IMG/VR virus record: IMGVR_UViG_3300025141_000127
Span: 1 to 54,089 of that record
Source of the DNA: a virus
Lineage: Duplodnaviria; Caudoviricetes
Reading direction: 5' to 3' (one strand)
Length of the DNA stretch: 54,089 bases
This document shows, piece by piece, positions 1 to 48,401 of the stretch. The first letter of the stretch is position 1; each line of letters begins with the position of its first letter. The notes under the pieces were generated by a model. That model was not told the DNA's origin, ran no database searches, and worked only from the letters and a program-made list of their open reading frames with translations. The translations under genes and the position numbers were made by a program.

Positions 1-141
1 GAGGGCTACGAAAGTGATATCGCGGAGGAAGGCGGCCTCGAGTTTATGCTCGGCGCGATGAATTACGAGGCGGCGGCGGAGGGCGTGGTGGCGCGCGGTG
101 CGGATGACCTTATGCGCATCGCCCCTACGACAGTTCAGGCC
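1..141. repeat. Terminal direct repeat, left copy (circular contig overlap)
   Basis: 1-141 matches 53949-54089 except at two positions (127 a/t, 138 g/t). Confidence 0.95.
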
Positions 142-3100
142 GCCCCGTACTGGCAGGCGTATTTGGACTGGCAGCGGCTGCACAAGGATAATATAGACGC
201 TGAGGGTAATCCTGACCTTGACCCGAAAGAGGGGCGACAAGCCTATGTCTTAAAGAGGGGGGCGGAAATCGCTCAAGACCCGGACCAGTTGGCTCTGGCG
301 TTAGCGAGCAACTACGACCCCGCCGGCAATATGATGGTCTATGGCGGACGGATTGCGTACCCAAATCTTCATGAGAGGAGCCCTATTCTGGCGGGCCTAC
401 TGAACGGCTCTCCGCGTCTTCTCCTCATGCTGATCGAGCCTGATGCGCTACAGGCGTCGTTCGCCTCGTTTGGCTTAGTCGGCTCTCTCGTAGGTTATGT
501 GGGTGGAAGGATTCCCAGAGCGGCAAGGCTTGCAGGGCGCATATCGAAGGCGGCCGGAAGAGTGGACGATGTGGTTCAGGGCGCTGATAGTGCGCAGGAG
601 GTCATGGATAAACTTAAAGCTCTCCAAGATGCTGACGCCACAGGTGCAACCACCTTTGTCTCCGGTCTGGTTGGAAGTGATACCGCGCGGCATATGAACG
701 GCAGGGGCGCGGACGACATCGCGGATGTCCTTGCCGCCGAGAACAGGGCTTTCGTGGAAGCGGGAAGGAAGGTTGAGGAGTCCGAGAAAGTGCTTAAAGG
801 TGCAATGGCTGACCTCAAGGATGCAAAGACGGCGGTGGAGAAGCAAGCCAGCGGCGTTCGTGCCGTCGAGGCAAACGTCGCGAAGAAAAGCGCGGAAGTA
901 GAAGAGGCTGTTGCAGAAATACAGGTAGCCCAGCGCGGGATCGATATTGTCTTAAAAGAAGATGTGGTCATAGATCAGGCGAAGACTTTCTCTGGGTGGT
1001 CGGAGTTTGACCCTGCGACCGTACTGGAGGGTGCTAAAGGGGGCAAGAGAGGTTTTAAGGGATTCGAGCCCGACAGCCCCTTCAACAACCCCGATATGTG
1101 GTTACCATCAACCTTTGCCCGCGCCGCCGATGGAGACCCCGGCGCGATAAAGATAATGAAGAGGAAACTCAACAAAGTCGCAGGCGAGCCCCCCTTCAAA
1201 CCAGCGGCGGCGAAGCGCGCCAAGCGTGCGAAGCTTCTGAAGGAGCAGGCCGAGAGGATCGAAAGTCTACGGAAGCTCCTTCGCAACTCTGACCTGAGTA
1301 CAGACCAGCAGACTATTAACCAGATCGTAGCGGCCGCAACAACCGAAGACGCGAACTTGGACACTATTGTCGCCGCCGCAGGTGAGTCATTTGCGAAGGT
1401 CGATGAAAAGTTGCGCGCGGCGGTAAACACTGTTGCGGATGCCGAGCGGAAGTTAGCGATTTCAGAGAGGCTGGCGGAGGTGCTCGCAGAGGGCGCGGCT
1501 CCGGGCGCTCTGCTTCGCGGGACAGGCCCTGCGCTTGAGCGGATGAAAGAAACCTCTGCTGCATTTCGCGCGGCGGCTGAAGTCGTGGCATCGTCGGAGG
1601 GTCAGCGTCTACTAAAAGACCTTGATCTCCACAAGGGTGGCCGCGATACAGCGGAGCTTCTTGAGGCCGAGCCCGAAAAAGTCGGACGGCTTCTGGAATT
1701 GGGGGCTGACGAGTCCGATGTTCTTGCAACCCTCGCGGCATCGGGAGATGGGGGCAGGCGCGTCGCCCTGTCCTTCCTAGTCTGGGCTAAGAGTGGCGAC
1801 GTACAACTGCGTGGTATGAAAAACATCAAGCAGTCCTTCAACAATATGAAGAAAAAGTATAGCCGTGATGGCACTCGGATGTTTTATAGGGATTACTTCA
1901 CGGACCCTCTCTTTCTGGTGCAGCAGAGCCTTGCTACGGTTGCCGACATTGTCCAAATGTCAGGATTAGCTTCGACTCGGGTCGGCGTGCTTGGCGGCCG
2001 CTTCGCGGCGAGGCTTCAGGAAATAGCGAATGGGCAGGCGCGAGAGACCGCCGCATGGTTTGGTGATTTGGGCATGATCGCCAAGCATTTTTCGGGGACC
2101 ACGGAAGCAGGTGCGCCCCTCGCCAAGGCCAAGGCTGTTGAGTTTATCGGTACGCAAAACCGAATCGAGCTTGGCGGGCCTCAAAAGGGCACCCGCGTCA
2201 ACAGTAATGAGCTTGGCGGCGACATCAACGACAACATCATGAACATCGCTATCGAGGGCTGGGCAGGCGTAGGGAAGACATTTGTCAAGACGAATAAGGG
2301 AGTGGACCTGACCGAGCACTACCTTGAAAAATCCGAGAGCATGTATGCGTACATAACCTCGTTTGTCAGGGATAGGATTGATGGAGATCTTGTCCCTAGG
2401 GTCGGTTCTGCAACTGTCACGTTTGGACGCTGGCTCAACAAGCCCTCTAAGGCAAACAAAAAGCTTACCAACGCAGAGTACATCCTGCGAAAGCCTGACC
2501 CCGAAGAGAGAATGAGGCTGCTCGCTAACGGGGCGATAGATTCCCTGAAGAGGAATGGCGTGGGCCAGTTTACGCCCAAGTCACTAGATGATGTTCCCGG
2601 TGCTATCCTTGCTTTAGACAATAAAACCTTTGGCCTGATGCTCGATAACATCGTTGGGGGGGCGACAGAGTTTGAAGTTGCCAAGCGCTTCGCAAACTTC
2701 GCGGGCCCCAACATTGGGCTGCGCAACCTCCGCGCGATGTCGAGTTGGATCGGAGCGCCTGAAGCGGGGAAGAAGGGCAAGAGCATACTCCCAAATCGAG
2801 AAACGATTGAGGTCGGCGACCGTGTTGCGCTGCGCTCGGACATGGACCCCATCCGGCGCGTGCTGGCAGGGAAGCCGCTGGAGGGCAAGGGCTGGGATGC
2901 GGGACGCCCCTTCAAGACAACAGAGGGCGCAACTCGCGGCCCCCAGTTTGGACTGGGTGCGGTGGAGCGCACTGAAATGCCCATGACTCTCGAGGTGCTG
3001 AAGGTTGAGAAGAAGGGCGGGCGCACGGTCGTTACAGTAACGGATTGGACGGGGACAACATCGACCCACGCCCTTGATGAGGTGACGAGGTTGGGGGGAG

Positions 3101-21583: not shown

Positions 21584-22225
21584 TTAGAACGGCAGGTCGT
21601 CGTCATCATGGACAACGGCGACGGGGGTTGGGGTTGGGGTTGGGGTTGGCTCGGCTGGCTCCGGCTGGTCGTGCGCGTAGTCAAAGTAGAAGTAGGCATG
21701 TCCGTCAACCAGACGAGCGTGAACCTCGTAGCGCACGCTGCCCCTCGGCATCTCCTCGGAGAACCACAGTGAGGCAGACACCTCTTGAGGCGCGGACACG
21801 ATGAGCACTCGAAGCTGGTCCTCCTCACACAACTCACCGAGCCCAGTGTTTGGCTCGCAGGGGTCGGACAGGTTCTGCCAGTCGGCGACCACCTCAACAT
21901 CAAAGTCGGCGCTGACGAGCACGCGGCTCACCGTACCGTGGAATTGTTGGGCGATCGTCTTCTCGTACTCGACACACAGATCAAGAGAGACGCGAACCTC
22001 AACGTCGTCGCTGTACTCGTTGCCGGCCTCGGTCTCTTCGCGCTCGTCCTTGATGACGTACACCCGAGCAATGTCCTTGCCGGGGCGCGCACCATTGCGA
22101 TCAAGAGATGCGTCGTGCTTGCCGTGAAGCAAGTCGTGCAGGAACTTGGATGCCTGCGGGGTCATGTCCCACCCGCTCTCGCGGGTGAGGTTGGTGCCCT
22201 TGTCGTCGTAGCGTGAGTCTTCCAT
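21584..22225 (-). CDS. Hypothetical acidic protein with PT linker and DDDDLPF tail
   Basis: AAGGAGG RBS before ATG 22225; 213 aa. Confidence 0.65.
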   Translation of the reverse strand: MEDSRYDDKGTNLTRESGWDMTPQASKFLHDLLHGKHDASLDRNGARPGKDIARVYVIKDEREETEAGNEYSDDVEVRVSLDLCVEYEKTIAQQFHGTVSRVLVSADFDVEVVADWQNLSDPCEPNTGLGELCEEDQLRVLIVSAPQEVSASLWFSEEMPRGSVRYEVHARLVDGHAYFYFDYAHDQPEPAEPTPTPTPTPVAVVHDDDDLPF

Positions 22226-22235
22226 GTCGTCCTCC

Positions 22236-22490
22236 TTAGAACGGGGAGTGGGGTTCAGGTTCATCATCGAGGGTCGGGTTCATGTCCGGCGGAACGACCG
22301 GAGTCTGTGGCACAATGGGCTCCAACGCATCCGCGCTGCCGCACTCCAGCTTGTCAGCATAGGCGCGGGCCTTAACGACGAAGCGCTCCATCGCATTCGC
22401 GCAGGCCCTCCAGTCGTCTGCGTGGTTGATCGTGTCCATGTCTACCTCGGGGGTAGGGTGGTCGTAGGCTTCGGCGAGAGTGAGTTTCAT
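22236..22490 (-). CDS. Hypothetical protein with acidic tail ending PF
   Basis: GGAGGACAC RBS; 84 aa. Confidence 0.6.
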   Translation of the reverse strand: MKLTLAEAYDHPTPEVDMDTINHADDWRACANAMERFVVKARAYADKLECGSADALEPIVPQTPVVPPDMNPTLDDEPEPHSPF

Positions 22491-22581
22491 GTCGTGTCCT
22501 CCAAGCAGGTGGTTTGTTCCTGCATCTGTCTAGTAATTGGTTGCGCCCCCCAAGTGGGGGGCAGGTTTGTCAAGAGAATGT

Positions 22582-22710
22582 CTAGGCCCCCATGTCGTAG
22601 ACGTGGTAGCGTCCGTCGAGTTCTTTCTCGATGCGAAGGTTGCTGTGGTGGTAGGCGTCGCAGAAGTCGATAGCCGGCCAGAGGTAGAGGAACTGGGCGA
22701 TGCTTTTCAT
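22582..22710 (-). CDS. Hypothetical protein (42 aa)
   Basis: ATGA coupling through GGGGTGCGGCATGA junction. Confidence 0.5.
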   Translation of the reverse strand: MKSIAQFLYLWPAIDFCDAYHHSNLRIEKELDGRYHVYDMGA

Positions 22711-23045
22711 GCCGCACCCCCTTCGAGTGCAGCCTTGACGAGGTGGTACGCTTCGGCGCTGTTGCCCCCGACGTTCCACGTCGTGACCTGAAAGCGGTTC
22801 ATGCCGCCGGGGCCGCAGTAGTTGGGACCGTTCTTCCAGTTGTACACCGTAGCCACGGTGCCGCAGGGGAACTCAATGTTCCATGACCAGTCCACCTGAT
22901 CGGGGCCCTCCACCCAGATGTGCTTGCCGAAGGCGAGGTACAGTTGGTTGTAGGTGATGTCGGTCAGGGTGCCCTGCTTGTAGGTGCCGTGGATGCAGAT
23001 GCCTTCGTCCTCGTTGTGCGTGAGGTAGGCTCGGTTCTTCGTCAT
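22707..23045 (-). CDS. Conserved-looking phage hypothetical protein (112 aa)
   Basis: AGGAGGACAC RBS; QG...TYNQL..AFG...W...ATVYNWK...WNVGG. Confidence 0.65.
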   Translation of the reverse strand: MTKNRAYLTHNEDEGICIHGTYKQGTLTDITYNQLYLAFGKHIWVEGPDQVDWSWNIEFPCGTVATVYNWKNGPNYCGPGGMNRFQVTTWNVGGNSAEAYHLVKAALEGGAA

Positions 23046-23122
23046 GGTGTGTCCTCCTGCCGGGTGGTTTGGTGCCGGCTCACCGTGGTTAACTGACTCA
23101 AGATGTAGGGGCAACAATATGA

Positions 23123-23269
23123 TCACAGCCACCGCTTCTGGCGGCAGGCTCGTCGGTCGGCCTCCTTCTTCTTGTCGGTGTGGTACCCCGCCTTGGCGGA
23201 GCGTGACTTCATGGCCTGCACGACGGCGTTGCGTCGCTTCGGTGGGGCCTGTCGTTTGCGCCTGCTCAT
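23123..23269 (-). CDS. Small basic protein (48 aa)
   Basis: MSRRKR...RNAVVQAM..RSAKAGYHTDKKK; ATGA coupling. Confidence 0.55.
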   Translation of the reverse strand: MSRRKRQAPPKRRNAVVQAMKSRSAKAGYHTDKKKEADRRACRQKRWL

Positions 23270-23364
23270 GCTGCACCTCCGAGTTGTGAATAGAAGTACA
23301 TTGTAACTGCCCAGCAGACGATCGCGAGGAGCCACGCGGCAACCTCGTAGCGTAGGTCTCTCAT
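23266..23364 (-). CDS. Small membrane peptide (32 aa)
   Basis: Hydrophobic AAWLLAIVCWAVTMYFY; GGAA junctions at both ends. Confidence 0.55.
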   Translation of the reverse strand: MRDLRYEVAAWLLAIVCWAVTMYFYSQLGGAA

Positions 23365-23483
23365 GCTGCACCCCCTTCGAGCAGCAGGCTCACAGTGAGC
23401 ACGGTCAGGGTCACCAGCCACGGGGTGCCGAAGATGAAGACGAAGGCGGCGACGGTCTCGTCGCTGAAGTAGGGGTCTCTCAT
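23361..23483 (-). CDS. Small membrane peptide (40 aa)
   Basis: Hydrophobic VAAFVFIFGTPWLVTLTVLTVSLLL; GGAA junctions. Confidence 0.55.
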   Translation of the reverse strand: MRDPYFSDETVAAFVFIFGTPWLVTLTVLTVSLLLEGGAA

Positions 23484-24088
23484 GCCGCACCTCCAAGCTG
23501 CAAGAACTGCGAGAGGTGGAGCGCCGCCGCGTGGTAGGACCGGCTCGTGTTCAGCGAGACCTGCTGTAGCCGCCGCAGGATCTCCTCCGCCTCGTCCATG
23601 TCTCCTCGGTTGCGGAAGTCCACGATGTCCTGCGCCAGCTTGCGGACGGTGGTCTGCACCGTACCCCTCGCGCACAACCACCAGAACTCCCGGTCATAGG
23701 TACGCTCGCGCTGAAGCTGGCCCTCCCTCACGGTTGCCCGGAACCACTTGTTGTCCACGTCATCTATGCCACGCTCCCGAAGGTCAAGCAGGACCGCCCA
23801 CTGGGAGAGACACCACGCAACAGCATCCCTGTCCTCTCGGTTGTAGTCCCGAACTACGAACACCATCCTTTCGTCCTCGACGTAGGCCAAGGGATGCCCC
23901 TCGTCCCCGTGAGTGGGGTGCTCGTAGATGCGCACGCCGTAGCGGGAGTAGAGCAGGGTGGAGTTCAGCCTAAGCTCGTCTCCACTCCACTTTGTGGTGG
24001 GCAGATCCCAGAAGTCGCAGAAGTAGCGGCCGTCCGCAAGGGAGGGGTACAGGTACGGGACGTAGGTTGTGTTTGTGTCGCGGTTCAT
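23480..24088 (-). CDS. Hypothetical early protein (202 aa)
   Basis: GGAGGTG RBS plus ATGA; contains YEHPTHGDE. Confidence 0.65.
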   Translation of the reverse strand: MNRDTNTTYVPYLYPSLADGRYFCDFWDLPTTKWSGDELRLNSTLLYSRYGVRIYEHPTHGDEGHPLAYVEDERMVFVVRDYNREDRDAVAWCLSQWAVLLDLRERGIDDVDNKWFRATVREGQLQRERTYDREFWWLCARGTVQTTVRKLAQDIVDFRNRGDMDEAEEILRRLQQVSLNTSRSYHAAALHLSQFLQLGGAA

Positions 24089-24780
24089 GCTGCACCTCCC
24101 TGCGCGCTGCGCACAGGCTCGGCGATGACCCTGCCCACGGTGACGACATCGCCCTGCTCCAACGCAGCGATGTACGCGAAGCGGGAGAGGTTGCACCGGC
24201 AGTCGTCCTCGCTGGCGGCGATGTAGCTTGAGCCCTCATACCGATTGTGGATGCGCACGACGGCGGCGCCCTTCGTGATGGGCAGGAAGGACACGCGCCC
24301 AACCATGCCCCCATCCGTGTCAGCCATGCTGGGGCGAAGGCCGGAAGAGAGAGCCTGCTGCACGCAGGTCCAGACCTCGTCGGTCATGTCGGAGCAGTGC
24401 TTGCGGAAGTGGCCTCGGTTGCTGGTGACGATGGTGTGCGGGGTGGGTCCGCAGGTGGCGGGGTAGGTGATCGCCACCTCATGGTCAGCGTAGTCGAAGG
24501 CCTCTTCGATCACCGCGCCCGTGGCGTGGGCGATGGTAGGTCCGACCTCCTCAAGTGCTGCCCGGTACATCGCCTCCTTCGGGGCGGCCTCGTCCACCTC
24601 CTCGGTGGTGAGCGCACCGTACAGGTCGTCCATCGTGGCAGGGGAGCGGGGATCGTGACCGTAGGTGAAGAGCAGGTCACGCAGACCCTCGGTCAGGTGG
24701 ACGTTCACGTCGTCGTGGATGCGTTGGGCGCACGCGCCCTCGGCGAAGTCAAGTTCAATGGTGAAGCGGATTTTTTTCAT
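24085..24780 (-). CDS. Hypothetical early protein (231 aa)
   Basis: GAGAGGACAC RBS. Confidence 0.65.
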   Translation of the reverse strand: MKKIRFTIELDFAEGACAQRIHDDVNVHLTEGLRDLLFTYGHDPRSPATMDDLYGALTTEEVDEAAPKEAMYRAALEEVGPTIAHATGAVIEEAFDYADHEVAITYPATCGPTPHTIVTSNRGHFRKHCSDMTDEVWTCVQQALSSGLRPSMADTDGGMVGRVSFLPITKGAAVVRIHNRYEGSSYIAASEDDCRCNLSRFAYIAALEQGDVVTVGRVIAEPVRSAQGGAA

Positions 24781-24815
24781 GGTGTCCTCTCGAATGAATG
24801 GTGGGTGGGTGGTGA

Positions 24816-25190
24816 TCAGATGTTGTTTGCGTATGCGTAACGGGCCTCGCGCTCATCTTCCTCAAGCTTCTTGACGCGCTCCTCGATGAGGTGGGCGATG
24901 TACGCGGCCTTCACCTCGGACGCACCGCGCAGGGGACCGTGGTTAGCAGAAGGGCCGGAGGTGCGGAAGTAGTGGAGAGCGTTGCGGTCACCGTCGTAGA
25001 CCATGTGCGATGTTCCATCGCTCGTAATCTTGAGCCCCTTCGGGATCTCGATGTCGAGCAGGGTAGCAAGGGCGCGAAGTTTCCTGACGCCCTCGGCCTC
25101 TCCGCCCGCCAGCGTGAAGACTGCGGTCTCGATGTCGAAGGTCATGGTGATGCCGGGCTCGGATGCGTGCTGGGTGAATGCGATGTTCAT
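24816..25190 (-). CDS. Hypothetical early protein (124 aa)
   Basis: GAGAGGACAAC RBS just downstream of hammerhead D. Confidence 0.65.
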   Translation of the reverse strand: MNIAFTQHASEPGITMTFDIETAVFTLAGGEAEGVRKLRALATLLDIEIPKGLKITSDGTSHMVYDGDRNALHYFRTSGPSANHGPLRGASEVKAAYIAHLIEERVKKLEEDEREARYAYANNI

Positions 25191-25219
25191 GTTGTCCTCT
25201 CGAATGGTTGATGGCTGAC

Positions 25220-25275
25220 GGGGTTTCGGCCCTCTGTGGGCCATCGTCAGGAGCGCAGATGCAGCGCCCGACCCC
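25220..25275 (-). ncRNA. Type III hammerhead ribozyme D (extra U after A9)
   Basis: GGGGUC^GGGCGC-UGCAUCU-GCGCUC CUGACGA U GGCCC-ACAGA-GGGCC GAAACCCC; predicted cut 25270/25269. Confidence 0.88.
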
Positions 25276-25287
25276 GAAGGGTGGGCG

Positions 25288-26055
25288 TCAGCCCTGCACC
25301 TCCCACTCGACGAGCGCGTCACCGATGGCGTCGGACATGTCCACGATGAGGGAGCGCTCCACGGCGTAGGCGTGACCCCTGTCGGTGGCGTTGGAGCCGT
25401 GCTCATGGAGGGCGCTGAAGTATCCCTTCAGCATGTCGTGTGAGGCCCAGTGGAAGGCGCTCCATTGCAGGGCGGACATGTCCTCACCGTACCCGAGATA
25501 CCTTTCGACGATCTCGCCAACGGAGTGACTGTCACTATTCCTCCACGTCCGCTCGAAACCCCAGCCGCCGTCCTTGAGTTGGCGCTCGACAGTGAAGGTC
25601 CGACGAACGCAGATGTGCGAGCGAGCATCGCCGTCGAAGGACGTGATGGTGGCCACGACATCCACCTTGATGCGACGCACGACGCCCTCGAAGTCGGTGT
25701 TCTCGTAGGTGGCGGTGGGCATGGTCGCCGTCAGGTCGTGCTCGATCCCGCGCGATGGGCGGGAGTGGATGTGACGCGCTTCGCCGGCGCGGCGAACGCA
25801 CCAAGCGGTGAACTCCTCGGAGAAGAGAGGCGCGACAGGCGTGACGGTGACGCCGCAGGCATAGCCGCCGCCGCCGATGGTGACGCTCTCGCCTGTGGCC
25901 TTGGCCGCTGCCGTCGCAGCCATGATGAGGGCTAGCGTCACATCGTTCACGACCTCCTCGTCGTAGCTCGAACGCTTGATGTCGTCCCCGTCCATGCGGG
26001 TCGTGAGGGGGCCGGTGTCGCCGGTGTTGATGGTGATGTCGAATGTCGGTGTCAT
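25288..26055 (-). CDS. Hypothetical early protein (255 aa)
   Basis: GAGAGGACAAC RBS before ATG 26055. Confidence 0.65.
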   Translation of the reverse strand: MTPTFDITINTGDTGPLTTRMDGDDIKRSSYDEEVVNDVTLALIMAATAAAKATGESVTIGGGGYACGVTVTPVAPLFSEEFTAWCVRRAGEARHIHSRPSRGIEHDLTATMPTATYENTDFEGVVRRIKVDVVATITSFDGDARSHICVRRTFTVERQLKDGGWGFERTWRNSDSHSVGEIVERYLGYGEDMSALQWSAFHWASHDMLKGYFSALHEHGSNATDRGHAYAVERSLIVDMSDAIGDALVEWEVQG

Positions 26056-26080
26056 GTTGTCCTCTCTGGTTGTGACTGAC

Positions 26081-26135
26081 GGGGTTTCGGCTCTCCATGA
26101 GCCATCGTCAGGCGGGCGGTACAGCCCACGACCCC
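26081..26135 (-). ncRNA. Type III hammerhead ribozyme C (extra U after A9)
   Basis: GGGGUC^GUGGGC-UGUACC-GCCCGC CUGACGA U GGCUC-AUGGA-GAGCC GAAACCCC; predicted cut 26130/26129. Confidence 0.9.
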
Positions 26136-26159
26136 TGCCCCCCGAAGGGGGCTCGGTGA

Positions 26160-26639
26160 TCAGCCCTTCACCTCCTTCACGATGCGGACCTTGAGGTTCG
26201 ACACGCACTTGGCGAGACCCCATCCAGTCGGGCTCCTGCTTTCGTCAGGGAGATCCTTCCAGACCTTGAGCCCGGTCATGAAGTCGTCCTTGTCGTAGCC
26301 AGAGCCGGCGGTGACGAGACCGAAGAGCACGGTGGCAATGACGGTAAGCTCGCGGTCCTTCGCCAGCACCCGCTCGGTGGTGGGGTACTTCGGATGGGCC
26401 TCGGCCTCGGCCACCGAGAGTCGAGGGTGCTTCTTGTCGAACTTCTTCATCCGGCTGTAGGCGTCCCTCTCGGCAGCGTAGGCGGCGAGGGCATACCGAT
26501 GGAGGATCCGAAGTCCGGCGTCGCCGTGGCAGGCGGTGTGAAAGCCAACCGTGAAGCACTGGGTCGCGAGGCGGTGCATGGTCTCGGCCTCGGCTGCGGT
26601 CATGTTGATGGTGATGGTCTTGTTGGTGGTCGGTGTCAT
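26160..26639 (-). CDS. Hypothetical early protein (159 aa)
   Basis: GAGAGGACGAC RBS before ATG 26639. Confidence 0.65.
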   Translation of the reverse strand: MTPTTNKTITINMTAAEAETMHRLATQCFTVGFHTACHGDAGLRILHRYALAAYAAERDAYSRMKKFDKKHPRLSVAEAEAHPKYPTTERVLAKDRELTVIATVLFGLVTAGSGYDKDDFMTGLKVWKDLPDESRSPTGWGLAKCVSNLKVRIVKEVKG

Positions 26640-26661
26640 GTCGTCCTCTCGTTGGTTGGTT

Positions 26662-26708
26662 CCGTTTCGGCCTTGCTTGGCCTCATCAGCGGGGCTTCCC
26701 CCGGACGG
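26662..26708 (-). ncRNA. Type III hammerhead ribozyme B
   Basis: CCGUC^CGGGG-GAAG-CCCCG CUGAUGA GGCC-AAGCAA-GGCC GAAACGG; predicted cut 26704/26703. Confidence 0.93.
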
Positions 26709-26730
26709 TGCCCCCGAAGGGGCGTGGCGG

Positions 26731-26949
26731 CTAGTAGCCCTCCTCGGATGTGACCTTGTCGAACCAGCGTTCGCAGAGGCGTGCGGTGTCGAGGTCGCCA
26801 TCTGACCTCGCGTTAAACCCGAGCAGGTCGAGCATGGTGCAGCCGGGGCACCCGAAGGCCTCCTCGATGTGATCTTCCTTGTACTGGCGCAGCTTGCTGA
26901 TGACCCATTCTGCCGTCCGTCGTGTCTCTGTCTTGTATGTCCGTTTCAT
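26731..26949 (-). CDS. Hypothetical early protein (72 aa)
   Basis: GAGAGGACGAC RBS; CPGC motif. Confidence 0.65.
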   Translation of the reverse strand: MKRTYKTETRRTAEWVISKLRQYKEDHIEEAFGCPGCTMLDLLGFNARSDGDLDTARLCERWFDKVTSEEGY

Positions 26950-26967
26950 GTCGTCCTCTCGTTGGTT

Positions 26968-27016
26968 GCTGTTTCGCCCTTCATCGGGCTCGTCAGGTGG
27001 GCTTCCCCACGACAGC
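26968..27016 (-). ncRNA. Type III hammerhead ribozyme A
   Basis: GCUGUC^GUGGG-GAAG-CCCAC CUGACGA GCCC-GAUGAA-GGGC GAAACAGC; predicted cut 27011/27010. Confidence 0.94.
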
Positions 27017-27036
27017 GCCCCCGAAGGGGCGGCCCG

Positions 27037-27300
27037 CTAGGGCTGGGTGATCAGCTTCACCAGAAGCAGGGTGATTGCGTCGTCGTTGGCCGGGTTGTAC
27101 CGGGCCAGAGCCTCCTCCAGCGTGACGCCTTGCAGGTACTTCCGCAGGTAGATGTGGACGAACTCCGTGCTGAGATCCGTCGTCGGGCCTTCGTGGTGGC
27201 GACGGGGCTCGGTGCTGCCGAGGGCGTCCTCGTAGGTGAGGTTGGCCGTGGCTGGCACGAAGGTGATGTCGGCGGTGTCGAGAATGGATTGGAGTGTCAT
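27037..27300 (-). CDS. Hypothetical early protein (87 aa)
   Basis: GAGGACAC RBS before ATG 27300. Confidence 0.6.
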   Translation of the reverse strand: MTLQSILDTADITFVPATANLTYEDALGSTEPRRHHEGPTTDLSTEFVHIYLRKYLQGVTLEEALARYNPANDDAITLLLVKLITQP

Positions 27301-27329
27301 GGTGTGTGTCCTCAAAGGTTGGTTGGTGA

Positions 27330-27515
27330 TCAGGAGATGAAGGCGTTCTTGTGGAGGATCTGGCGGGTCCGGCCAGTGGCGGGGCAGCAGAGGGTGACCC
27401 AGTCGCCGGTCGCGAGGGAGATGGCCTTGGCCGAGTCCATCGCGGTGAAGATGTTGCCGGTGACCGTGTGAACGGTGTCGGTGTTGTCGGTGATGGTGAA
27501 CAGCTTGATGCGCAT
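27330..27515 (-). CDS. Hypothetical early protein, first gene of leftward operon
   Basis: 61-aa ORF with GGGGG RBS; codon style matches neighbours. Confidence 0.55.
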   Translation of the reverse strand: MRIKLFTITDNTDTVHTVTGNIFTAMDSAKAISLATGDWVTLCCPATGRTRQILHKNAFIS

Positions 27516-28195
27516 GGATGGCCCCCAGAAGAAAAGAGAAGAGATTCAGAATGTGGACGCTCTTTGGCGTACTAGTAGTGTAGGCGCAAACGGGCCGGGT
27601 CAGAGGAAGGGCCTGTAAAGCTGGGCCGGCAGCGGGTTTAGAAAAGTTGTAAACTCTTGCATGACACGGGTTTCGGGGGCCTCCCGACGATCGGGGGCCT
27701 CGCGATATTCGGCGTTCTACCGTGGAGCCAACTCAACGGGCAAACGCCAGCTTTCGGGCGAAAATGGGGGTGATCGCGAACGGGCCAACGCCGGCTTTCG
27801 TGAGGTGAGCTTGGCCGGGTCGCCCTGATCAGGAGCCCGACTTCGGAGCCAGCTTGCTCGCAAACCTGATCAGGATGGGACGAGACCACCACATGTAGGA
27901 GAGGGGTCCGCGACACCCTTCCGAGCGACACCCCAACGACCCGTTCAGACACCCCCACCGGAGAGGGAGTACACGCCGGATGCACTGCACCACATGAGGG
28001 GGCGACCACTACCGGTTGAGAGCCCCCAAATGGGGTGTTCTGGCCCGCAGAAGATGGTGCCCGCGAGGGGGGTCGAGTCGAGGTCGAGGGCTCCCGAGGT
28101 GGGCGGGCGGCGCAACGGACCATCCCCCTTTTTCGCAAAAAAAATTCTATTACTGGGTTACTGCCTCAACATGACGGCGGTTTTTGACATTTTCT

Positions 28196-28485
28196 TGTCT
28201 ACGCTTGTCTACGCTTTGTCTACACCCTAGCGAGGCAAAGTGTAGACAGATTATCCCAGCTTAATCCTTTACTATGGCCCAATGTCTACGTTGTCTACGG
28301 TGTCTACACCCTACATTCAATCAATCCCATATATATAAAGATAGTACCCCCCTATATGGTACTACCCCGAAACAGCTACAGAACTCATAATAGGGAAAAA
28401 AGCGTAGACAGTGTAGACAACTAGCCATATGCCCGCTGCAAGCTGAACTATCGTGTCTACGCTAAAACGTAGCAAAGTGTAGACA
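28196..28485. repeat. Iteron cluster, putative replication origin
   Basis: 11 copies of TGTCTAC: direct at 28196, 28206, 28217, 28283, 28292, 28301, 28454; inverted at 28242, 28404, 28413, 28479; AT-rich core; upstream of primase-helicase. Confidence 0.75.
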
Positions 28486-28573
28486 TCCAAGGCTGTCGTC
28501 TATGTCGTGCCCTGTCACCCCTTGCACACCTACGACGGCTATGTTACTTGGGCTGGGACAGAGGAGGGAGATA

Positions 28574-28792
28574 ATGTCATCAAATGTGCTTCTTTCTGTC
28601 GTAGAGGTAGCCCAGCGTTTGCGGGTTAGCTCTAGGACAGTGCAACGTTTAATCAGGTCGCAGCAGCTAAGGGCCTATCGCGTCGGGCGACAACTTAGGA
28701 TACCGGAGTTGGCCATCACGGAGTTGTTGCGGAACACGCGCTTCGACGATGATGAGTTTGAGAAGATTCAGGCCGCTGAAGCGTTGTTCTAG
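28574..28792 (+). CDS. Excisionase-like (HTH_17/MerR-type) DNA-binding protein
   Basis: LLSVVEVAQRLRVSSRTVQRLIRSQQLRAYRVGRQLRIP; GGAGG RBS. Confidence 0.85.
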   Translation: MSSNVLLSVVEVAQRLRVSSRTVQRLIRSQQLRAYRVGRQLRIPELAITELLRNTRFDDDEFEKIQAAEALF

Positions 28793-28800
28793 GGGGGAGT

Positions 28801-31311
28801 ATGAAGGACAAGTCAGGCGAGACCCGCATCCTGCGCGGTCTTGAGAAGGTACTGCGCCCGAATCAGGTGGTAGAATTACGCGCACTAGGGGTAGAGACGG
28901 CGGAGGGTTACCGGAATCTGAACGGATTCTTTGATGACCACCGCCTTCTAGCGGAGGCAGCAGCACATCTCTGTAGTGAGGGGGCTCGAGGGGTGTACTT
29001 CACGCCGAACCCCCTTAAAGCGGACTTTCACTTGGACGCCCGCAACACACTTGGGGTAGCTCGGCGCGGGTTCGCGGCGACGGATACCGATGTGGAGGAG
29101 ATCCGGTGGATACTCATCGACATCGACCCCTCACGTCCGGCGAACATCTCCAGTACGGAGGAAGAGAAGGAGGGTGCCCTCGCTGTTGCGGGGAAGGTGC
29201 GCGCATTCTTGGAATCGCACGGATGGCCGCAACCATTGTTTGCAGATTCCGGCAATGGCTACCATCTCATGTACCTGTGCGAGGGATTGACGGCGAAAGA
29301 CCACAAGAGGCTGCTTGACCTCCTATCCTTCCGCTTTAATCTGGACGGTGTCGCCGTTGTGGACCAGTCTGTCTACAACCCAAGCCGGATATGGAAGGTT
29401 TACGGTACATACTCAAGGAAAGGGGAAGATGCCCCCAACCGCCCTTGGCCCTTGGCGCATATCATCTCTAAAGTCGCTCCGAAAAAAGCTGTCAAGCAGC
29501 AGCAACTGCAAGCGCTGCTTGCTGATTCTCCAAAGGAGAATAAGCGTGCTATTCTATCCGAGGATGATCAGGAGCGGCTCCAGACTTGGGTCGCTGCGCA
29601 CTTCCCTCAAGCAACCGGGCCAGACCCGTGGCAGGGCAAGGGGCGGCGCTGGGTATTCGACGTGTGTCCTTGGGATCCCTTCCATACAGACCGCAGCGCC
29701 TACATTGTGCAGTTCAATAGCGGGGCAGTCTCCGCCGGGTGCCTGCATAAGAACTGTGCCGGCCACGGAAGGGACGATGATGGCCGCAGTCTGGGCTGGA
29801 GGAGGCTTCAGGAGTTGGCTGGGGACGATTTTGGAGGAGGGGGAGAGGACAACACCCCACCACAGGGCCCGCTGGCCCCATCGTCTTCAGATAACTTTAA
29901 TCTGACGGACCTCGGGAACGCGAAGCGGATGATCTCGTCCTTCGGGGTAAACATGCGCTACTGCCCAACACATGCCTCTTGGTATATCTTTGATGACGCC
30001 AGATGGCAGAGGGACATGGATGGGGCGGTTCAGCGCTACGCGAAATCTTCGGTTGGTTTGATTTTTCAGGACGCCAATGCTGAAACAAACCGTCAGCGCC
30101 AGCGTGCCCTTCAGCGCCACGCCCTCCGCAGTGAGGGGTGCGGCGCGCTCAACTCAATGGTGTCCGTAGCCTCTACCGAAGCTGAAGTTTGTATTCCATC
30201 TTACCGTTTGGACTCTGACCCTTGGCTCTTCAACACATCCAGCGGAACCCTCGACCTTCGCACCGGCGAACTATCTGACCACGACAGGACCGACCTTATC
30301 ACTAAGATCAGCCCCGTTGAATGGGATGTGGACGCGAAGTGCCCCCTCTGGGATGAGTTCATCATGTATGCGATGGAGGAGGATGAGGAAGTCGTCGAGT
30401 TCCTGCACCGCTTCTTTGGTTATTGCTTGACGGGCATGGTCACGGAGCAGGTTCTTCTCTTCATGGAGGGGACAGGAGGAAATGGTAAGACTACTGCCTT
30501 GTTAGTTTTAATGCACATTCTCGGGGAATACTCCATTCAGGGAGCGCCCGGACTTCTGATGGCCAAGCACAACGAATCCCACCCAACGGAGGTGGCTGAC
30601 TTGGAGGGTGCCCGCTTTGTGGCCAACGCCGAAGTCGAGAAGGGCAAGCCCTTTGCGGAGGTGCTGATCAAGCAGTTGACCGGCAGCGACCCCATCCGGG
30701 CTCGTCGGATGCGTATGGACTTTTACCAATTCATGCCCTCCCACAAACTGTGCATCGCGGCGAATCATCGGCCCATCATCAAGGGCAACGATGAGGGAAT
30801 TTGGCGGCGCGTCTTGCGGATCCCTTGGAGAGTAAAAATTCCAGATAGCAAGAAAGACCCCCACTTGGTGGAAAAGCTGAAGAAGGAATCCTCCGGTATT
30901 CTGAATAAGCTGGTTGAAGGCTGCTTATCGTGGCAGAAGGATGGATTGAATCCCCCTCAAAAAGTTCGTGTGGCGACGAATGAATACCGCGAGGAGATGG
31001 ATGTTCTCTCCGAGTACATGGAAGAGAGATGCATTATTGGTAAGGACAGGTCGGTCCCGAAGAAACAGCTTTATATGGACTACGCCGAGTGGTGCGAAGA
31101 CATGAAGCAGCGACCCCAGAGTTACTCTCTGTTCTGCCGCCAGCTATCCGAGAGAGACTACAAGAGTTCCGTGACCAAGGTAATGTTCAATGGGCAGAGA
31201 AAGTCCATTCGGGTTTGGAGGGGCCTCACTTTGGCGCACCTCACTCGCACTGCGGAGTCGCCCGCCAGCGCGATTGTTTCTAAACTTAAATGGGGGGATG
31301 CGGAAGCTTGA
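28801..31311 (+). CDS. Primase-helicase (AEP-like primase, Zn-binding region, D5_N, SF3 helicase; P4 alpha/D5-like)
   Basis: LIDID, SGNGYH, CPW..H...CLHKNC, TDLGNAKR, GTGGNGKTT, IKQLTGSD, IWRR. Confidence 0.92.
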   Translation: MKDKSGETRILRGLEKVLRPNQVVELRALGVETAEGYRNLNGFFDDHRLLAEAAAHLCSEGARGVYFTPNPLKADFHLDARNTLGVARRGFAATDTDVEEIRWILIDIDPSRPANISSTEEEKEGALAVAGKVRAFLESHGWPQPLFADSGNGYHLMYLCEGLTAKDHKRLLDLLSFRFNLDGVAVVDQSVYNPSRIWKVYGTYSRKGEDAPNRPWPLAHIISKVAPKKAVKQQQLQALLADSPKENKRAILSEDDQERLQTWVAAHFPQATGPDPWQGKGRRWVFDVCPWDPFHTDRSAYIVQFNSGAVSAGCLHKNCAGHGRDDDGRSLGWRRLQELAGDDFGGGGEDNTPPQGPLAPSSSDNFNLTDLGNAKRMISSFGVNMRYCPTHASWYIFDDARWQRDMDGAVQRYAKSSVGLIFQDANAETNRQRQRALQRHALRSEGCGALNSMVSVASTEAEVCIPSYRLDSDPWLFNTSSGTLDLRTGELSDHDRTDLITKISPVEWDVDAKCPLWDEFIMYAMEEDEEVVEFLHRFFGYCLTGMVTEQVLLFMEGTGGNGKTTALLVLMHILGEYSIQGAPGLLMAKHNESHPTEVADLEGARFVANAEVEKGKPFAEVLIKQLTGSDPIRARRMRMDFYQFMPSHKLCIAANHRPIIKGNDEGIWRRVLRIPWRVKIPDSKKDPHLVEKLKKESSGILNKLVEGCLSWQKDGLNPPQKVRVATNEYREEMDVLSEYMEERCIIGKDRSVPKKQLYMDYAEWCEDMKQRPQSYSLFCRQLSERDYKSSVTKVMFNGQRKSIRVWRGLTLAHLTRTAESPASAIVSKLKWGDAEA

Positions 31312-45983: not shown

Positions 45984-46484
45984 ATGGGTTTTACAGCAGC
46001 AGGTATTACTACCTCAACAGTTACCACTACGCAGCAGGCTCCACTTGGCTTCGAGTTGACCGTTCCTAACGGCGACTACGGCAATCAGGTGTGGGTCTAC
46101 ATCAAGAATGTCGATGACGGACCAACCGCCCTTGCGGAAGGCAACCCCGTTATGACGCTGGACGCAGACGACACCTCAAGGGCCGAGTATTACCAAGTGC
46201 AAATCTGCCCAACGGGGAGGCACTCGGCAAAGAAAGTCGTGGGTGTGGCGCAGCATGTGATTGCGGTCAACTCGTATGGCTTTGTGTTGAAGTCTGGCAA
46301 GGGCAGCGTCAAGGGCGGTGCTACTACCGACTCGGGCCTCTCCTTGATGACAGACACCTCGACCCCCGGTGAGGTCATTGCTTTGGACACCACAGGTGGA
46401 CAAAACGATGCTTGCATCGGAGTGTCGTTGGGTGACCTTGCTGACGACACGGTTGGCTCTGCCATCATTAGCTGCGGCGTCTAG
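45984..46484 (+). CDS. Capsid decoration/cement protein
   Basis: AGGAGG RBS; follows capsid; WVYIK, VGVAQHVIAVNSYGFV. Confidence 0.65.
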   Translation: MGFTAAGITTSTVTTTQQAPLGFELTVPNGDYGNQVWVYIKNVDDGPTALAEGNPVMTLDADDTSRAEYYQVQICPTGRHSAKKVVGVAQHVIAVNSYGFVLKSGKGSVKGGATTDSGLSLMTDTSTPGEVIALDTTGGQNDACIGVSLGDLADDTVGSAIISCGV

Positions 46485-46490
46485 TAGCTG

Positions 46491-48401
46491 ATGAATCTCA
46501 AGGAGATTCGGAACGCGATGTTCGCTCAGGCGGATTGGGCTCCAACCCAATCCCCTGAAGCGACATCTCGCGTTAACGGCTTCATTAACCGGGCCTACAA
46601 TCAGTTGGCCTTGGAAGCTCCGTTTCTCTTTTTTGAATCTAAAGTCCATCTAGCGACCGAGCCAGATGTCGAGTCGCTAGAGGGCATTTCCACCAACAAC
46701 CCCGACCGTATTCAGTTGTCGGGCACGAACACTCTTCCTCTGTCTCCTACCAGTAGAGACCCTTGGACTTGGAAGGCGACGTTCACCCACGCACAAGCTA
46801 CGGCAGCGCCGACAAAGCTTAACGTGTGGAAGTACGACCGCTCATGGGACGGCCGTATGATTGAAATCACCGCCCATGACGGGACACTCATTCGGAACCA
46901 GATCCGCTCGGTCTGGAACAACTCCGGCACCTACCACGTCACGATGGTTCGTCCGTGGGACATCGACACCTTTGGTGACGGAACCGCCAATGATGCTGAC
47001 GGCATCGCTGGATTCAAGTACCGCATCTTCACGGATGCGTACTCTCTGCCGGACGACCTGATCCAGCTAAACTCCGCACGGCTTAGGGACAACACCAACA
47101 ACTACCCCCTTGAGGTTGTTGGGCAGCAGGAGGCTGAAGTTCTTCAGCTTGATGGTCCTCCCTCGCAGATCACAAGCGGCATCCCGCGCGTCATCTTTCG
47201 CAGGCAACACATCCACATGCAGGGACCAAGCGTGGCTCCGGTAGCCTCGGCCTCCCTCACAAACAAGGATGCCCTCAAGGAGACGATCAGCATTCCCCGA
47301 GGAGGCTCCTCCGTCGAAGAGAACACACAGGCGACCCGCGCTACTTATGACAGCCGTTATATTAAGATTGAAGCACGCGGTGAGACTTCTCGCACGGGAG
47401 AAGCTCTCGAGTCAAACCCCTCGGATACAGCCGTGGATGTTTCGTGGCTAGGCCCAGAGCCAACGGGAACCTTTGAATACAAGGTTACTTACACTTGGGG
47501 CAAGCGAGATGTGGAGTTTGAACTCCCCGGTCTTGGTCACTGGGAGGGCTTTGGCCGCCCGCTCGACATCACGGAGGCGACCGCTTTTCCCTCCGACCCG
47601 AGCACAAGTACCGTGGCGTCAGGGGATTCCTCTTCACGCAACCGCTTCAGGACTCCCCGCTTTGAGTCCCCTCCCTCCGAGGCGTCTAACGCTATGGCCA
47701 ATGTTAAGGTGGGGGATGCCTTCTCGGCTATCAAGCTGTCGCTGCCCAACATTAACTATGCTCTCGGGTACATGATCAAGCGCACAGGCGTGAGCCGCCA
47801 GTCGCTAGACCAGAGCGGGATTTACATCCGCATTTACCGGCGTCGGGTTGCGGTTAGCTTGGCGAACTACGAGCGCCTTCCCAACGCCGTTGACGGACTT
47901 CAACACGCACAGTTGGACAGCGCTGACGCCTTCCACCTCCTCTCGGAGTTCCGTGCGGATAGCTCAAACTCTAGTGTTTGGTACGACAATGGTGAGTTTT
48001 TGCCTGACCGCAGCCATCGCCTGCGGGACATCCACGGTTACCAGACCATGCAGTTTTACCCTAAGCCCGACAAGCGCTACGTCATTGACATCCGCGCTAT
48101 TACGCGGCCTCCAAGATTAGCTGACGACCGGGACGCTCCCTTGGTCCACGCAGAAGCCGTCAATGTCCTTATTGAAAAAGCGATGGTGTACCTGTACGAG
48201 AACATGGGTCAGACCGGCCGCTCGGAGTACAGCGAGGCTCGCTATTTGGAGCTTCTCCTTACCCTCTCAAAAAGATACGGCGACCTTCGACCCCCCTCCG
48301 TCCCTGTGTTACGCTCAATGACACGGGCCACAGGCGTTCGCACAAACCGCAGGTGGAACCGTAGGCTATCAACAGACGATTTGGGAGGCGTAGTAGAATG
48401 A
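46491..48401 (+). CDS. Head-tail adaptor (tail tubular A-like) with large insertions
   Basis: MNLKEIR...FINRAY, YSLPDD, QFYPKPD...LADDRDAPLV adaptor-type motifs spread over 636 aa. Confidence 0.65.
   Translation: MNLKEIRNAMFAQADWAPTQSPEATSRVNGFINRAYNQLALEAPFLFFESKVHLATEPDVESLEGISTNNPDRIQLSGTNTLPLSPTSRDPWTWKATFTHAQATAAPTKLNVWKYDRSWDGRMIEITAHDGTLIRNQIRSVWNNSGTYHVTMVRPWDIDTFGDGTANDADGIAGFKYRIFTDAYSLPDDLIQLNSARLRDNTNNYPLEVVGQQEAEVLQLDGPPSQITSGIPRVIFRRQHIHMQGPSVAPVASASLTNKDALKETISIPRGGSSVEENTQATRATYDSRYIKIEARGETSRTGEALESNPSDTAVDVSWLGPEPTGTFEYKVTYTWGKRDVEFELPGLGHWEGFGRPLDITEATAFPSDPSTSTVASGDSSSRNRFRTPRFESPPSEASNAMANVKVGDAFSAIKLSLPNINYALGYMIKRTGVSRQSLDQSGIYIRIYRRRVAVSLANYERLPNAVDGLQHAQLDSADAFHLLSEFRADSSNSSVWYDNGEFLPDRSHRLRDIHGYQTMQFYPKPDKRYVIDIRAITRPPRLADDRDAPLVHAEAVNVLIEKAMVYLYENMGQTGRSEYSEARYLELLLTLSKRYGDLRPPSVPVLRSMTRATGVRTNRRWNRRLSTDDLGGVVE

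Follow-up and report, generated by a model that had tools for sequence, protein, structure and literature searches.

Four type III hammerhead motifs in consecutive gaps of a marine phage operon and their probable role in dividing its message

Why would a phage place a ribozyme motif in one gap after another of the same operon, and what would become of the message if each of them cut? The purpose of the thousands of hammerheads known from bacteria and phages is still open and calls for more work, according to the part of a 2019 review cited here (PMC6765202). The window considered here, that is, the whole stretch of 54,089 nucleotides that was analysed, derives from an uncultured marine phage and encodes DNA polymerase A, a D5-type primase, terminase and portal; the contig looks lytic and is not itself a prophage. 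Megablast of positions 24000-28500 found no close DNA relative among cultured phages, and in a tblastn search of cultured phages with the primase every relative lay below 60% identity and covered less than 80% of the query. A first-pass annotation of this DNA had reported a complete type III hammerhead in each of four successive minus-strand gaps between genes, and all four were recovered exactly where it placed them. In the direction of transcription, genes and hammerheads (A to D) follow one another in this way:

27037..27300, minus strand: gene for an 87-aa protein, upstream of A; no family match; homologue in the related locus L123
26968-27016, minus strand: hammerhead A, type III, stems I/II/III of 5/4/5 bp, canonical core CUGACGA/GAAA/GUC, predicted cut 27011/27010
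26731..26949, minus strand: gene for a 72-aa protein, between A and B; no family match
26662-26708, minus strand: hammerhead B, type III, stems of 5/4/4 bp, canonical core CUGAUGA, predicted cut 26704/26703
26160..26639, minus strand: gene for a 159-aa protein, between B and C; no family match; absent from L123
26081-26135, minus strand: hammerhead C, type III, stems of 6/5/5 bp, extra U after A9, predicted cut 26130/26129
25288..26055, minus strand: gene for a 255-aa protein, between C and D; no family match
25220-25275, minus strand: hammerhead D, type III, stems of 6/5/5 bp (stem III has 6 bp if the element is extended to 25219-25276), extra U after A9, predicted cut 25270/25269
24816..25190, minus strand: gene for a 124-aa protein, downstream of D; its L123 homologue lies between B' and C'

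The small proteins say little about themselves. Searches of seven of them against Pfam and PHROGs gave nothing above the cut-offs; a search of 5.8 billion clusters with the 159-aa protein gave five proteins at E <= 0.001, and the 255-aa protein gave seven at the same threshold. A search of viral_contigs found no relative of the 255-aa protein. The idea of one hammerhead per gap holds for the four consecutive gaps and stops there, as neither the gap before the 87-aa gene (27329-27301) nor that after the 124-aa gene (24815-24781) contains one.

Read on the minus strand, every element runs from a stem III 5' strand ending in GUC through the stem I hairpin, CUGANGA, the stem II hairpin and GAAA to the stem III 3' strand. 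Stems I and II are closed by loops and stem III is open, which is the type III topology, and the catalytic core is complete in A, B, C and D (C3-U4-G5-A6-N7-G8-A9, G12-A13-A14, the A15.1-U16.1 pair and an H17 other than G). The first bases of the downstream fragments predicted from this arrangement (27010, 26703, 26129 and 25269) are the same as those proposed earlier. The CUGANGA, GAAA and GUC cores and the paired stems attributed to the four elements are likewise present throughout, with the reservation that C and D are not strictly canonical: one U is inserted between A9 of CUGACGA and position 10.1 of stem II. An extra base at this point is found in 8 of 195 distinct hammerheads, some on unrelated contigs (7 U and 1 A). 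It resembles the extra nucleotide between A9 and G10.1 in the CChMVd (+) hammerhead, a viroid element whose natural extra base is A, whereas here it is U and lies in phage mRNA spacers; a U at the extra position raised the trans-cleavage rate of the CChMVd hammerhead 3-4 fold (De la Pena and Flores, 2001, as reported in the part of the review PMC3705267 cited here). C, D and their relatives form a long-loop class in which loops 1 and 2 may contact each other through 2-4 bp. A putative contact of 2 bp pairs in all six distinct rows, one of its positions being variously CG, GC and UA; this pairing was chosen after viewing the sequences. A search for such a contact in A and B found none; about 40% of natural hammerheads have loop-loop pseudoknots, by the figure in the part of PMC3088659 cited here.

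Could four such motifs arise by chance? A strict type III descriptor matched four times in the window, compared with a mean of 0.01 in 200 dinucleotide shuffles (two of which held one match), and 500 shuffles of region 22001-28200 gave zero matches. The bare motif CTGANGA-N8-36-GAAA alone is not significant, with 7 matches vs 3.52 expected. At the gathering score, an Rfam search returned no match in the window or in 10 related loci. The Hammerhead_3 check suggested in the first-pass annotation succeeded in part: RF00008 matched B (44.1 bits, E 1.7e-7) and A (38.4 bits, E 6.7e-6), both below the gathering cut-off of 48.5 bits, which is a curation threshold and no biochemical criterion. C and D were unlisted by RF00008 at E up to 10, and we attribute this to their extra U and longer loop 1. 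The four elements share with RF00008, which covers viroid, satellite and bacterial type III hammerheads, the topology, core bases, GUC, G10.1-C11.1 pair and A15.1-U16.1 pair, and differ from it in that A and B fall below the curated cut-off and C and D are missed. Our own model R1 gave C 84.5 bits, with C itself in the seed.

Evidence of selection on the RNA pairing comes from their relatives. Among 19 loci related through the neighbouring primase, the descriptor and model searches found four orthologous hammerheads in the same operon of L123 and one type III hammerhead each in L130 and L140; L213, a second locus on the contig of L124, has the same four as L123. The L123 orthologue of A differs at N7 only and that of C is identical, while the orthologue of B has stems I and II of different sequence that still pair and that of D lacks the inserted U and differs in stem II. 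In an alignment, fitted to the model, of 10 hammerheads (9 distinct), a small set of paralogues and orthologues from four lineages, 98.5% of 136 cells are paired compared with 32-51% in slid controls, 9/16 pairs change on both sides, and the covariation score was reached in 0/500 shuffles. The compensatory stem change between copies that had been noticed by eye is thus borne out. A MAFFT alignment of nine hammerheads (A1) was left unused, stem II being out of register in it. Taken together, sequence comparison supports the elements as genuine hammerhead motifs under selection for RNA pairing. They are not universal in the group: of the eight related loci that reach 3 kb or more upstream of the primase gene, five yielded no hammerhead to either the descriptor or the model, so this phage group can do without the device.

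What would four hammerheads do in this position? All four are on the coding strand and confined to the first genes of a unidirectional operon that adjoins a divergent control region. We consider it likely that they are type III self-cleaving ribozymes in the leftward polycistronic RNA, dividing the operon message into single-gene pieces. On sequence grounds, self-cleavage into single-gene mRNAs is probably their function, more so than any other considered. Each ribozyme would fold on emerging from transcription and cut after its own GUC, giving single-gene pieces for the 87-, 72-, 159- and 255-aa genes and a downstream piece starting with the 124-aa gene. By the known chemistry of hammerheads, each upstream piece would end in a GC-rich UUCG hairpin followed by 1-7 nt and a 2',3'-cyclic phosphate. 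Each downstream piece would carry a 5'-OH at its start, then the folded ribozyme body, and after these an unstructured leader rich in C and A, the GAGAGGAC Shine-Dalgarno sequence and ATG. The likely benefit would be to make the stability and translation of each small accessory gene independent of its neighbours. Self-cleavage in vivo, single-gene mRNAs whose ends are protected, independence from host nucleases and a place in the first-transcribed (early) operon are all plausible; a sigma-70 promoter scan of 22000-29000 gave 0 sites.

The spacers hold more than the ribozyme motif. A strong Shine-Dalgarno sequence and ATG follow within 18-29 nt of each hammerhead, and a small hairpin precedes it:

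27017..27030, minus strand: hairpin of A, 5-bp GC stem with UUCG loop, abutting the 5' side of hammerhead A; after cutting, the upstream fragment would end in this structure
26710..26723, minus strand: hairpin of B, 5-bp GC stem with UUCG loop, separated from hammerhead B by 1 nt
26137..26152, minus strand: hairpin of C, 6-bp GC stem with UUCG loop, ending 1 nt before hammerhead C
25271..25282, minus strand: hairpin of D, 4-bp stem with UUCG loop; its 3' arm is the stem III 5' strand of D

The spacer order is stop codon, UUCG hairpin, hammerhead, CA-rich leader, Shine-Dalgarno sequence and ATG. The earlier view that every gap holds the same cassette is correct as to these parts and fails at D, where the hairpin is no separate unit and overlaps stem III. 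With one bulge this hairpin continues to 25287-25265, and it cannot coexist with the hammerhead fold; the same kind of overlap occurs in L123, L140 and L130. Is the abutting hairpin peculiar to this phage? A hairpin of at least 5 bp ending 0-3 nt before a type III hammerhead was found in 29/53 distinct cases from 22 loci, compared with 6.5 in shuffles and 3, 10 and 5 at displaced positions, in a sample that is biased because its loci were fetched by hammerhead-like patterns.

Punctuation of phage messages is familiar from T7, in which intercistronic RNase III sites divide the early polycistronic mRNA into hairpin-ended, individually stable mRNAs. Those sites depend on a host enzyme and on long imperfect duplexes of about two helical turns. 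The present spacers would work in a similar manner, as punctuation of an early polycistronic mRNA, and differ in having 4-6 bp UUCG hairpins and a self-cleaving core in place of a long duplex; therefore no host nuclease would be needed. A second comparison is with RiboJ-type insulators, which were engineered from a satellite RNA ribozyme, stand 5' of an RBS, remove upstream RNA context and leave a hairpin-structured 5'-OH leader. A self-cleaving ribozyme motif 5' of an RBS is common to both; the motifs described here are natural, repeated and phage-encoded. The hairpin-plus-ribozyme arrangement, together with the anti-core pairing described below, could inform the design of ribozyme insulators.

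The predicted energetics complicate the picture. When each spacer is folded between stop codon and ATG, the hammerhead structure comes out 1.5 (A), 2.9 (B), 4.5 (C) and 4.7 (D) kcal/mol less stable than the minimum free energy structure and makes up 0.016, 0.0045, 0.0017 and 0.0002 of the ensemble, respectively, under an energy model that ignores tertiary contacts. For C and D in context, strong competing folds are the minimum free energy structure. The hairpin upstream of D ties up stem III together with part of stem I, and the cores of both C and D can pair with a hexamer in the 3' flank:

26076..26081, minus strand: CGUCAG 3' of C, directly after stem III; complements core CUGACG (26111-26106); candidate core-sequestering helix, in the minimum free energy fold in context
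25215..25220, minus strand: CGUCAG 3' of D, directly after stem III; complements core CUGACG (25250-25245); candidate core-sequestering helix

Constitutive efficient cleavage is thus not assured, since the hammerhead folds lie above the minimum and those of C and D face strong competitors. This raises the question of whether C and D, and possibly all four, are conditional ribozymes. The upstream hairpin and the anti-core hexamer would then hold an inactive fold, with cutting limited to a co-transcriptional kinetic window or dependent on Mg2+, temperature or a ribosome terminating upstream, and the outcome would tune expression of the downstream gene. Besides the competing folds, a hexamer complementary to CUGANG directly after stem III in 8/53 distinct type III hammerheads vs 0/53 in a reversed-core control speaks for such switches, as do one unrelated case that has changed on both sides (CUGAUG/CAUCAG) and the retention of the pairing in L130 via a G-U; regulated cleavage was also raised for phage hammerheads in the part of Perreault et al. 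(2011) cited here (PMC3088659). Against this, 7/8 of the hexamer cases have the same CCCCGUYAG flank and 5 of those 7 belong to this phage group, and much of the recurrence may thus reflect common descent. The same helices would suit post-cleavage product traps equally well, and A and B are without an anti-core helix. The hairpin overlapping stem III, as in D, was tried as a general refolding device and is not enriched (12/53 vs 13.75 expected). We regard conditional cleavage as unlikely, and division into single-gene mRNAs remains the preferred reading.

The place of the hammerheads in the operon invites another thought. Later genes of this long operon are tightly coupled by overlapping stop and start codons, and hammerheads are present only among the first ones, which would suit a device of polarity or attenuation: cleavage would expose 5'-OH, ribosome-free RNA to degradation or Rho and produce a step-down gradient of expression with no stable single-gene mRNAs. 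The closely following Shine-Dalgarno sequences and ATGs and the structured 5' ends suit translation and protection more than decay, and such a device seems very unlikely.

Gene content bears on a further alternative, namely that the elements are conserved patches serving phage recombination and small-gene exchange, or relics of such patches, with ribozyme activity irrelevant or lost. Between the window and L123, gene order changes across the hammerhead-bounded slots, the 124-aa gene having moved and the 159-aa gene being absent. When contigs from four DNA runs were compared with the region, contigs of other marine runs matched hammerhead cores and then diverged, leaving loose ends at 26075/26112 (X2), 26058/26101 (X4) and 25219/25251 (X5), weak evidence that comes from contigs only. 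Patches of DNA homology would not keep every core base while stems change by compensatory pairs, and the 124-aa gene brought no hammerhead along when it moved, which makes exchange as the main role extremely doubtful. Hardly credible is the use of the 5'-OH and 2',3'-cyclic-phosphate ends for joining by the ribozyme or an RtcB-type ligase into circular or spliced gene-length RNAs, a possibility compatible with the end chemistry and mentioned by Perreault et al. (PMC3088659), since neither product was detectable in the work reported in the part of that paper cited here and a Pfam scan of 22 window ORFs, a partial annotation, found no ligase gene.

How much of this proposed division into single-gene mRNAs, then, is new? 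The first-pass annotation knew of no description of such a stereotyped array, and this did not hold up: clustered hammerheads flanking individual genes in prophages and phages were first described by Perreault et al. (2011, PLoS Comput Biol; PMC3088659), who, in the part cited here, showed cleavage of three tandem arrays in vitro and of one of them in E. coli. The viral loci that were fetched include arrays with as many as nine, and hammerhead arrays between phage genes are common in viral metagenomes. The present locus has several coding-strand hammerheads flanking individual genes of a phage genome, four in four consecutive gaps, and resembles the published arrays, as far as the cited part describes them (PMC3088659), in lying on one strand in intergenic spacers with single small genes of variable identity between, in the proposed conversion of long phage transcripts into single-gene mRNAs, and in its candidate loop-loop pseudoknots and tolerated core variants. 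It differs from the prophage arrays in consisting of four type III units on a lytic-looking marine phage contig. It also differs in the UUCG hairpin directly upstream of each unit and in the two units with an extra U after A9 and a 3' core-complementary hexamer. Possibly new are the hairpin directly upstream of type III hammerheads in general, the core-sequestering helix 3' of C and D and the reshuffling of genes between hammerhead-bounded slots; similar hairpins or core insertions may appear in supplementary figures S1-S6 of Perreault et al. The locus leaves existing knowledge unchanged in kind. It offers a compact natural test case, with four ribozymes of two sub-designs in one operon and orthologues with rebuilt stems, suited to asking whether self-cleavage determines, for each gene, how stable its mRNA is and how well it is translated in the course of infection.

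Relatives of the phage meet the same problem by other means. We tentatively suggest that in this phage group, and perhaps widely, the type III hammerhead is one of several components that together make up a punctuation cassette. The abutting hairpin would cap the 3' end of the upstream mRNA; the 3' hexamer would lock the cut ribozyme shut, blocking re-ligation and closing the 5' structure of the downstream mRNA; and the cassettes would mark slots of gene exchange, which relatives fill with type I hammerheads, an uncatalogued four-hairpin RNA or repeated promoter-like units. A 10-mer of the uncatalogued element of L130 and L140 occurs in the window not beyond chance. Three weak matches to R1 (E 0.06-0.13) were also considered. 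That at 46474-46519 of the window was rejected as a hammerhead, with GGAA in place of GAAA and an RBS within its span, and that at 11808-11852 of L140 was set aside on score alone; the third, at 3059-3107 of L130, is part of a type I hammerhead.

In the leftward operon of this phage, each of the gaps after the 87-, 72-, 159- and 255-aa genes holds one full type III hammerhead. Reading the minus strand with a strict descriptor placed all four where the first-pass annotation had put them. The genes and ribozymes (A to D) of this stretch are the following.

27515-27330, minus strand: 61-aa gene
27300-27037, minus strand: 87-aa gene
26968-27016, minus strand: hammerhead A
26949-26731, minus strand: 72-aa gene
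26662-26708, minus strand: hammerhead B
26639-26160, minus strand: 159-aa gene
26081-26135, minus strand: hammerhead C
26055-25288, minus strand: 255-aa gene
25220-25275, minus strand: hammerhead D
25190-24816, minus strand: 124-aa gene
24780-24085, minus strand: 231-aa gene

The descriptor combined a core of CUGANGA (with one optional inserted base), GAAA, U16.1 and a non-G H17 with minimum lengths of 3 bp for the stem II hairpin, 4 bp for the stem I hairpin and 3 bp for stem III. The window gave exactly four matches, A, B, C and D, against a mean of 0.01 matches in 200 dinucleotide shuffles of the window and none in 500 shuffles of its GC-rich 22-28.2 kb part. The Rfam search proposed in the first-pass annotation gave no match in the window at the gathering score; in E-value mode the Hammerhead_3 model (RF00008) placed B at 44.1 bits (E 1.7e-7) and A at 38.4 bits (E 6.7e-6), below the cut-off of 48.5 bits, and C and D were absent from the listing. 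Relative to this model, C and D carry a single additional U after A9, before stem II, and have longer loops 1. Throughout the loci fetched, one inserted base after A9 is needed in 8 of 195 distinct hammerheads (7 U, 1 A), which are spread over several unrelated contigs. The hammerhead of the viroid CChMVd has a natural extra A at the core position where C and D have U, and changing that A to U raised its trans-cleavage rate 3-4 fold (De la Pena and Flores 2001, as summarised in PMC3705267); an insertion at this position is thus already known to be tolerated.

No Pfam or PHROG family matched the operon's small proteins, and among 5.8 billion clusters the 255-aa protein has 7 proteins at E <= 0.001 and the 159-aa protein 5. 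Because of this lack of families and scarcity of homologues, the neighboring primase was chosen as bait, and 19 related viral loci were fetched through it (56-79% identity). In one of them, L123, the homologous operon contains four hammerheads of type III (A' to D'), and the same four are found in L213, a second locus of the contig of L124; two others, L130 and L140, have one type III hammerhead each. Eight loci extend 3 kb or more upstream of the primase gene; hammerheads occur in three of them (L123, L130 and L140), and in the other five (L125, L128, L134, L138 and L139) neither the descriptor nor a covariance model found any. Seeded with four of the ten hammerhead sequences, the covariance model found the remaining six in 266,842 bases (E 5.5e-18 to 1.3e-8), plus three weak matches. 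One of these is part of a type I hammerhead identified later, one, in the window, was discarded on inspection, and the third, with a score alone to go by, was set aside. Topologies are mixed within one operon among the relatives, type I units occupying some gaps and a type III unit another: L130 carries two of type I in other gaps (3040-3093 and 3614-3670, minus strand), and L140 has one, seen by eye, at 1-40 (minus strand), where it is cut by the contig end. None of these type I units appeared in an Rfam E-value scan of the two loci.

The four elements are hammerhead motifs that have been conserved in evolution. In a model-made alignment of ten hammerheads (nine distinct), standard pairs fill 98.5% of 136 cells and 9 of 16 pairs have changed on both sides; with partners slid by 1-3 columns pairing is 32-51%, and 0 of 500 column shuffles reached the covariation score. 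B differs from its L123 counterpart in stems I and II; D has an entirely different stem II from its own counterpart, which is without the extra U. A long-loop class of seven sequences (six distinct) allows a contact in which the final two bases of loop 1 pair with two of loop 2; both positions are paired in all six distinct rows, with CG, GC and UA at one of them. This contact, picked after viewing the sequences, is at most suggestive; no equivalent was found for A and B. Such a pseudoknot is used by about 40% of hammerheads and is required for fast cleavage, as stated in Perreault et al. (PMC3088659).

The cassette described in the first-pass annotation is also present: a stop codon is followed by a GC hairpin with a UUCG loop, the hammerhead, a CA-rich leader, GAGAGGAC and ATG. 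In D, the 3' arm of the UUCG hairpin doubles as the 5' half of stem III. Two gaps that have no hammerhead (27329-27301 and 24815-24781) likewise carry the CA-rich leader and GAGAGGAC 5' of their genes, and these two elements are the general leader style of the operon. Of 53 type III hammerheads, 29 (in 22 loci) have a separate hairpin, 5 bp or longer, whose end lies 0-3 nt 5' of them, compared with 6.5 in shuffles and 3, 10 and 5 at displaced positions. Since nearly the whole type III motif stays on the downstream fragment after the cut, the abutting hairpin would leave the 3' end of the upstream fragment structured; stacking of the hairpin on the open and short stem III may occur as well. The passages on hairpins in Perreault et al. 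(PMC3088659) do not note such a regularity.

The most likely mode of action is co-transcriptional self-cleavage after each GUC, which the core, the helices, the strand and the position all fit. Such cleavage would split the first part of the operon RNA, presumably made early, into single-gene mRNAs, the upstream pieces with hairpin-capped 3' ends bearing a cyclic phosphate and the downstream pieces with structured 5'-OH ends. As RNase E-type decay depends on the 5' end, the products would be expected to be protected from it. Rival readings would make the hammerheads conditional switches (in place of constitutive cutters), polarity devices, recombination modules or substrates for ligation. Folded alone, each hammerhead is at or near its minimum free energy. 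In native-context folds, from stop codon to ATG, the best structure with all three helices lies above the minimum by 1.5 kcal/mol (A), 2.9 kcal/mol (B), 4.5 kcal/mol (C) and 4.7 kcal/mol (D), gaps that are not decisive because the energy model has no term for core tertiary structure. The predicted folds show real competitors in the native context: an extended upstream hairpin in D, and in both C and D the core CUGACG paired with CGUCAG directly 3' of stem III. Among 53 distinct type III hammerheads, 8 have this anti-core hexamer in perfect pairing (reversed-core control, 0 of 53), with common descent as a confounder since five of the eight are from the phage group of the window; one unrelated contig has CUGAUG and CAUCAG as its core and anti-core. 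A hairpin overlapping stem III is not enriched generally (12 of 53 versus 13.75 expected).

Genes have been shuffled between the ribozymes. In L123, A' separates the 87-aa from the 72-aa gene, B' the 72-aa from the 124-aa gene, C' the 124-aa from the 255-aa gene, and D' the 255-aa gene from a relative of the 231-aa gene. The B-C slot of the window is taken by the 159-aa gene, and the 124-aa gene comes after D, with no hammerhead 3' of it. The inter-ribozyme slots therefore hold exchangeable genes. From the sequences compared, it is the shared leader, not the ribozymes, that seems to contain the breakpoints. A conserved intergenic RNA of about 90 nt lies in an early-operon gap of L130 (4070-4170, minus strand) and L140 (745-850, minus strand), a kind of slot that elsewhere holds hammerheads. 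Four hairpins are predicted in it, with both-side changes in 6 of 22 pairs; it matches no Rfam family at E <= 0.1 and was not found in the window. In the hammerhead-free relative L128, an intergenic repeat of 73-86 nt occurs five times (267-2214), with TTGACA-like and TACAAT-like hexamers on the coding strand; each small gene there may have its own promoter in place of a ribozyme.

The suggestion that such an array was undescribed does not hold, as the arrangement is described in Perreault et al. 2011 (PMC3088659), with the expected cleavage seen in vitro for three tandem arrays and in E. coli for one; the array of the window is thus of a kind already described. A 2019 review restates the processing idea and calls the purpose still to be defined (PMC6765202), and the proposal of a ribozyme-split operon is a reasonable match to this standing hypothesis. 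Same-strand arrays are frequent among 260 sources fetched with two hammerhead-like patterns: two hammerheads occur in 13, three in 9, four in 10, seven in 2 and nine in 1, a count that includes the window and five duplicate loci in a sample biased by pattern-based fetching. In one viral locus (L021), four type I units each lie between a stop codon and the next ATG. One-strand type I arrays with units a few hundred bases apart were seen in three unrelated viral contigs: nine in L198 (2992-6428, plus strand), seven in L034 (8690-13234, minus strand) and seven in L070 (544-4550, minus strand). These are larger than the triple arrangements tested in Perreault et al. 2011.

The window spans an entire IMG/VR virus record (54,089 bases), graded complete by CheckV. 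Its gene content marks it as a tailed phage: a family A DNA polymerase with a fused UDG-like domain, an SNF2/DEAD helicase, a D5-type primase, a terminase, a portal and an SU10-type adaptor. Its nearest DNA matches are marine and seawater metagenomes; megablast of 24000-28500 and tblastn with the primase found no close cultured phage. Minus-strand genes span from about 28.1 kb to about 9.9 kb and plus-strand genes run from 28.5 kb upward, with a control region separating the two sets. Twelve of the 18 GTAGACA copies in the window fall, on both strands, within 290 bases (28196-28485; whole-window expectation, 3.9). This cluster, between the leftward operon and an adjoining HTH_17 gene (28502-28792, primase next), probably represents an operator or origin iterons. 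From the iteron region to the first small gene there are about 580 GC-rich bases (27560-28140, minus strand) with no convincing open reading frame, the sole frame being 166 aa with a TTG start. A TTGCNCCTACA... motif is common to intergenic 27576-27589 and 23101-23114 (both minus strand), and by eye is also upstream of the L123 operon. It is a possible phage promoter; its relaxed pattern has 9 matches versus 5.2 expected, not above chance, and a scan of 22000-29000 found no sigma-70-like site. At 22700-24120 (minus strand), 3' of the hammerhead zone, stop and start codons overlap in ATGA junctions with GGAGGTGCAGC before each; unlike the ribozyme-separated genes, this is a translationally coupled block. 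Open frames of 499 aa and 1726 aa, without a Pfam match, run off both record ends in the same direction (52593-54089 and 1-5181, plus strand), and the record may be a circular permutation opened within a single very large gene.
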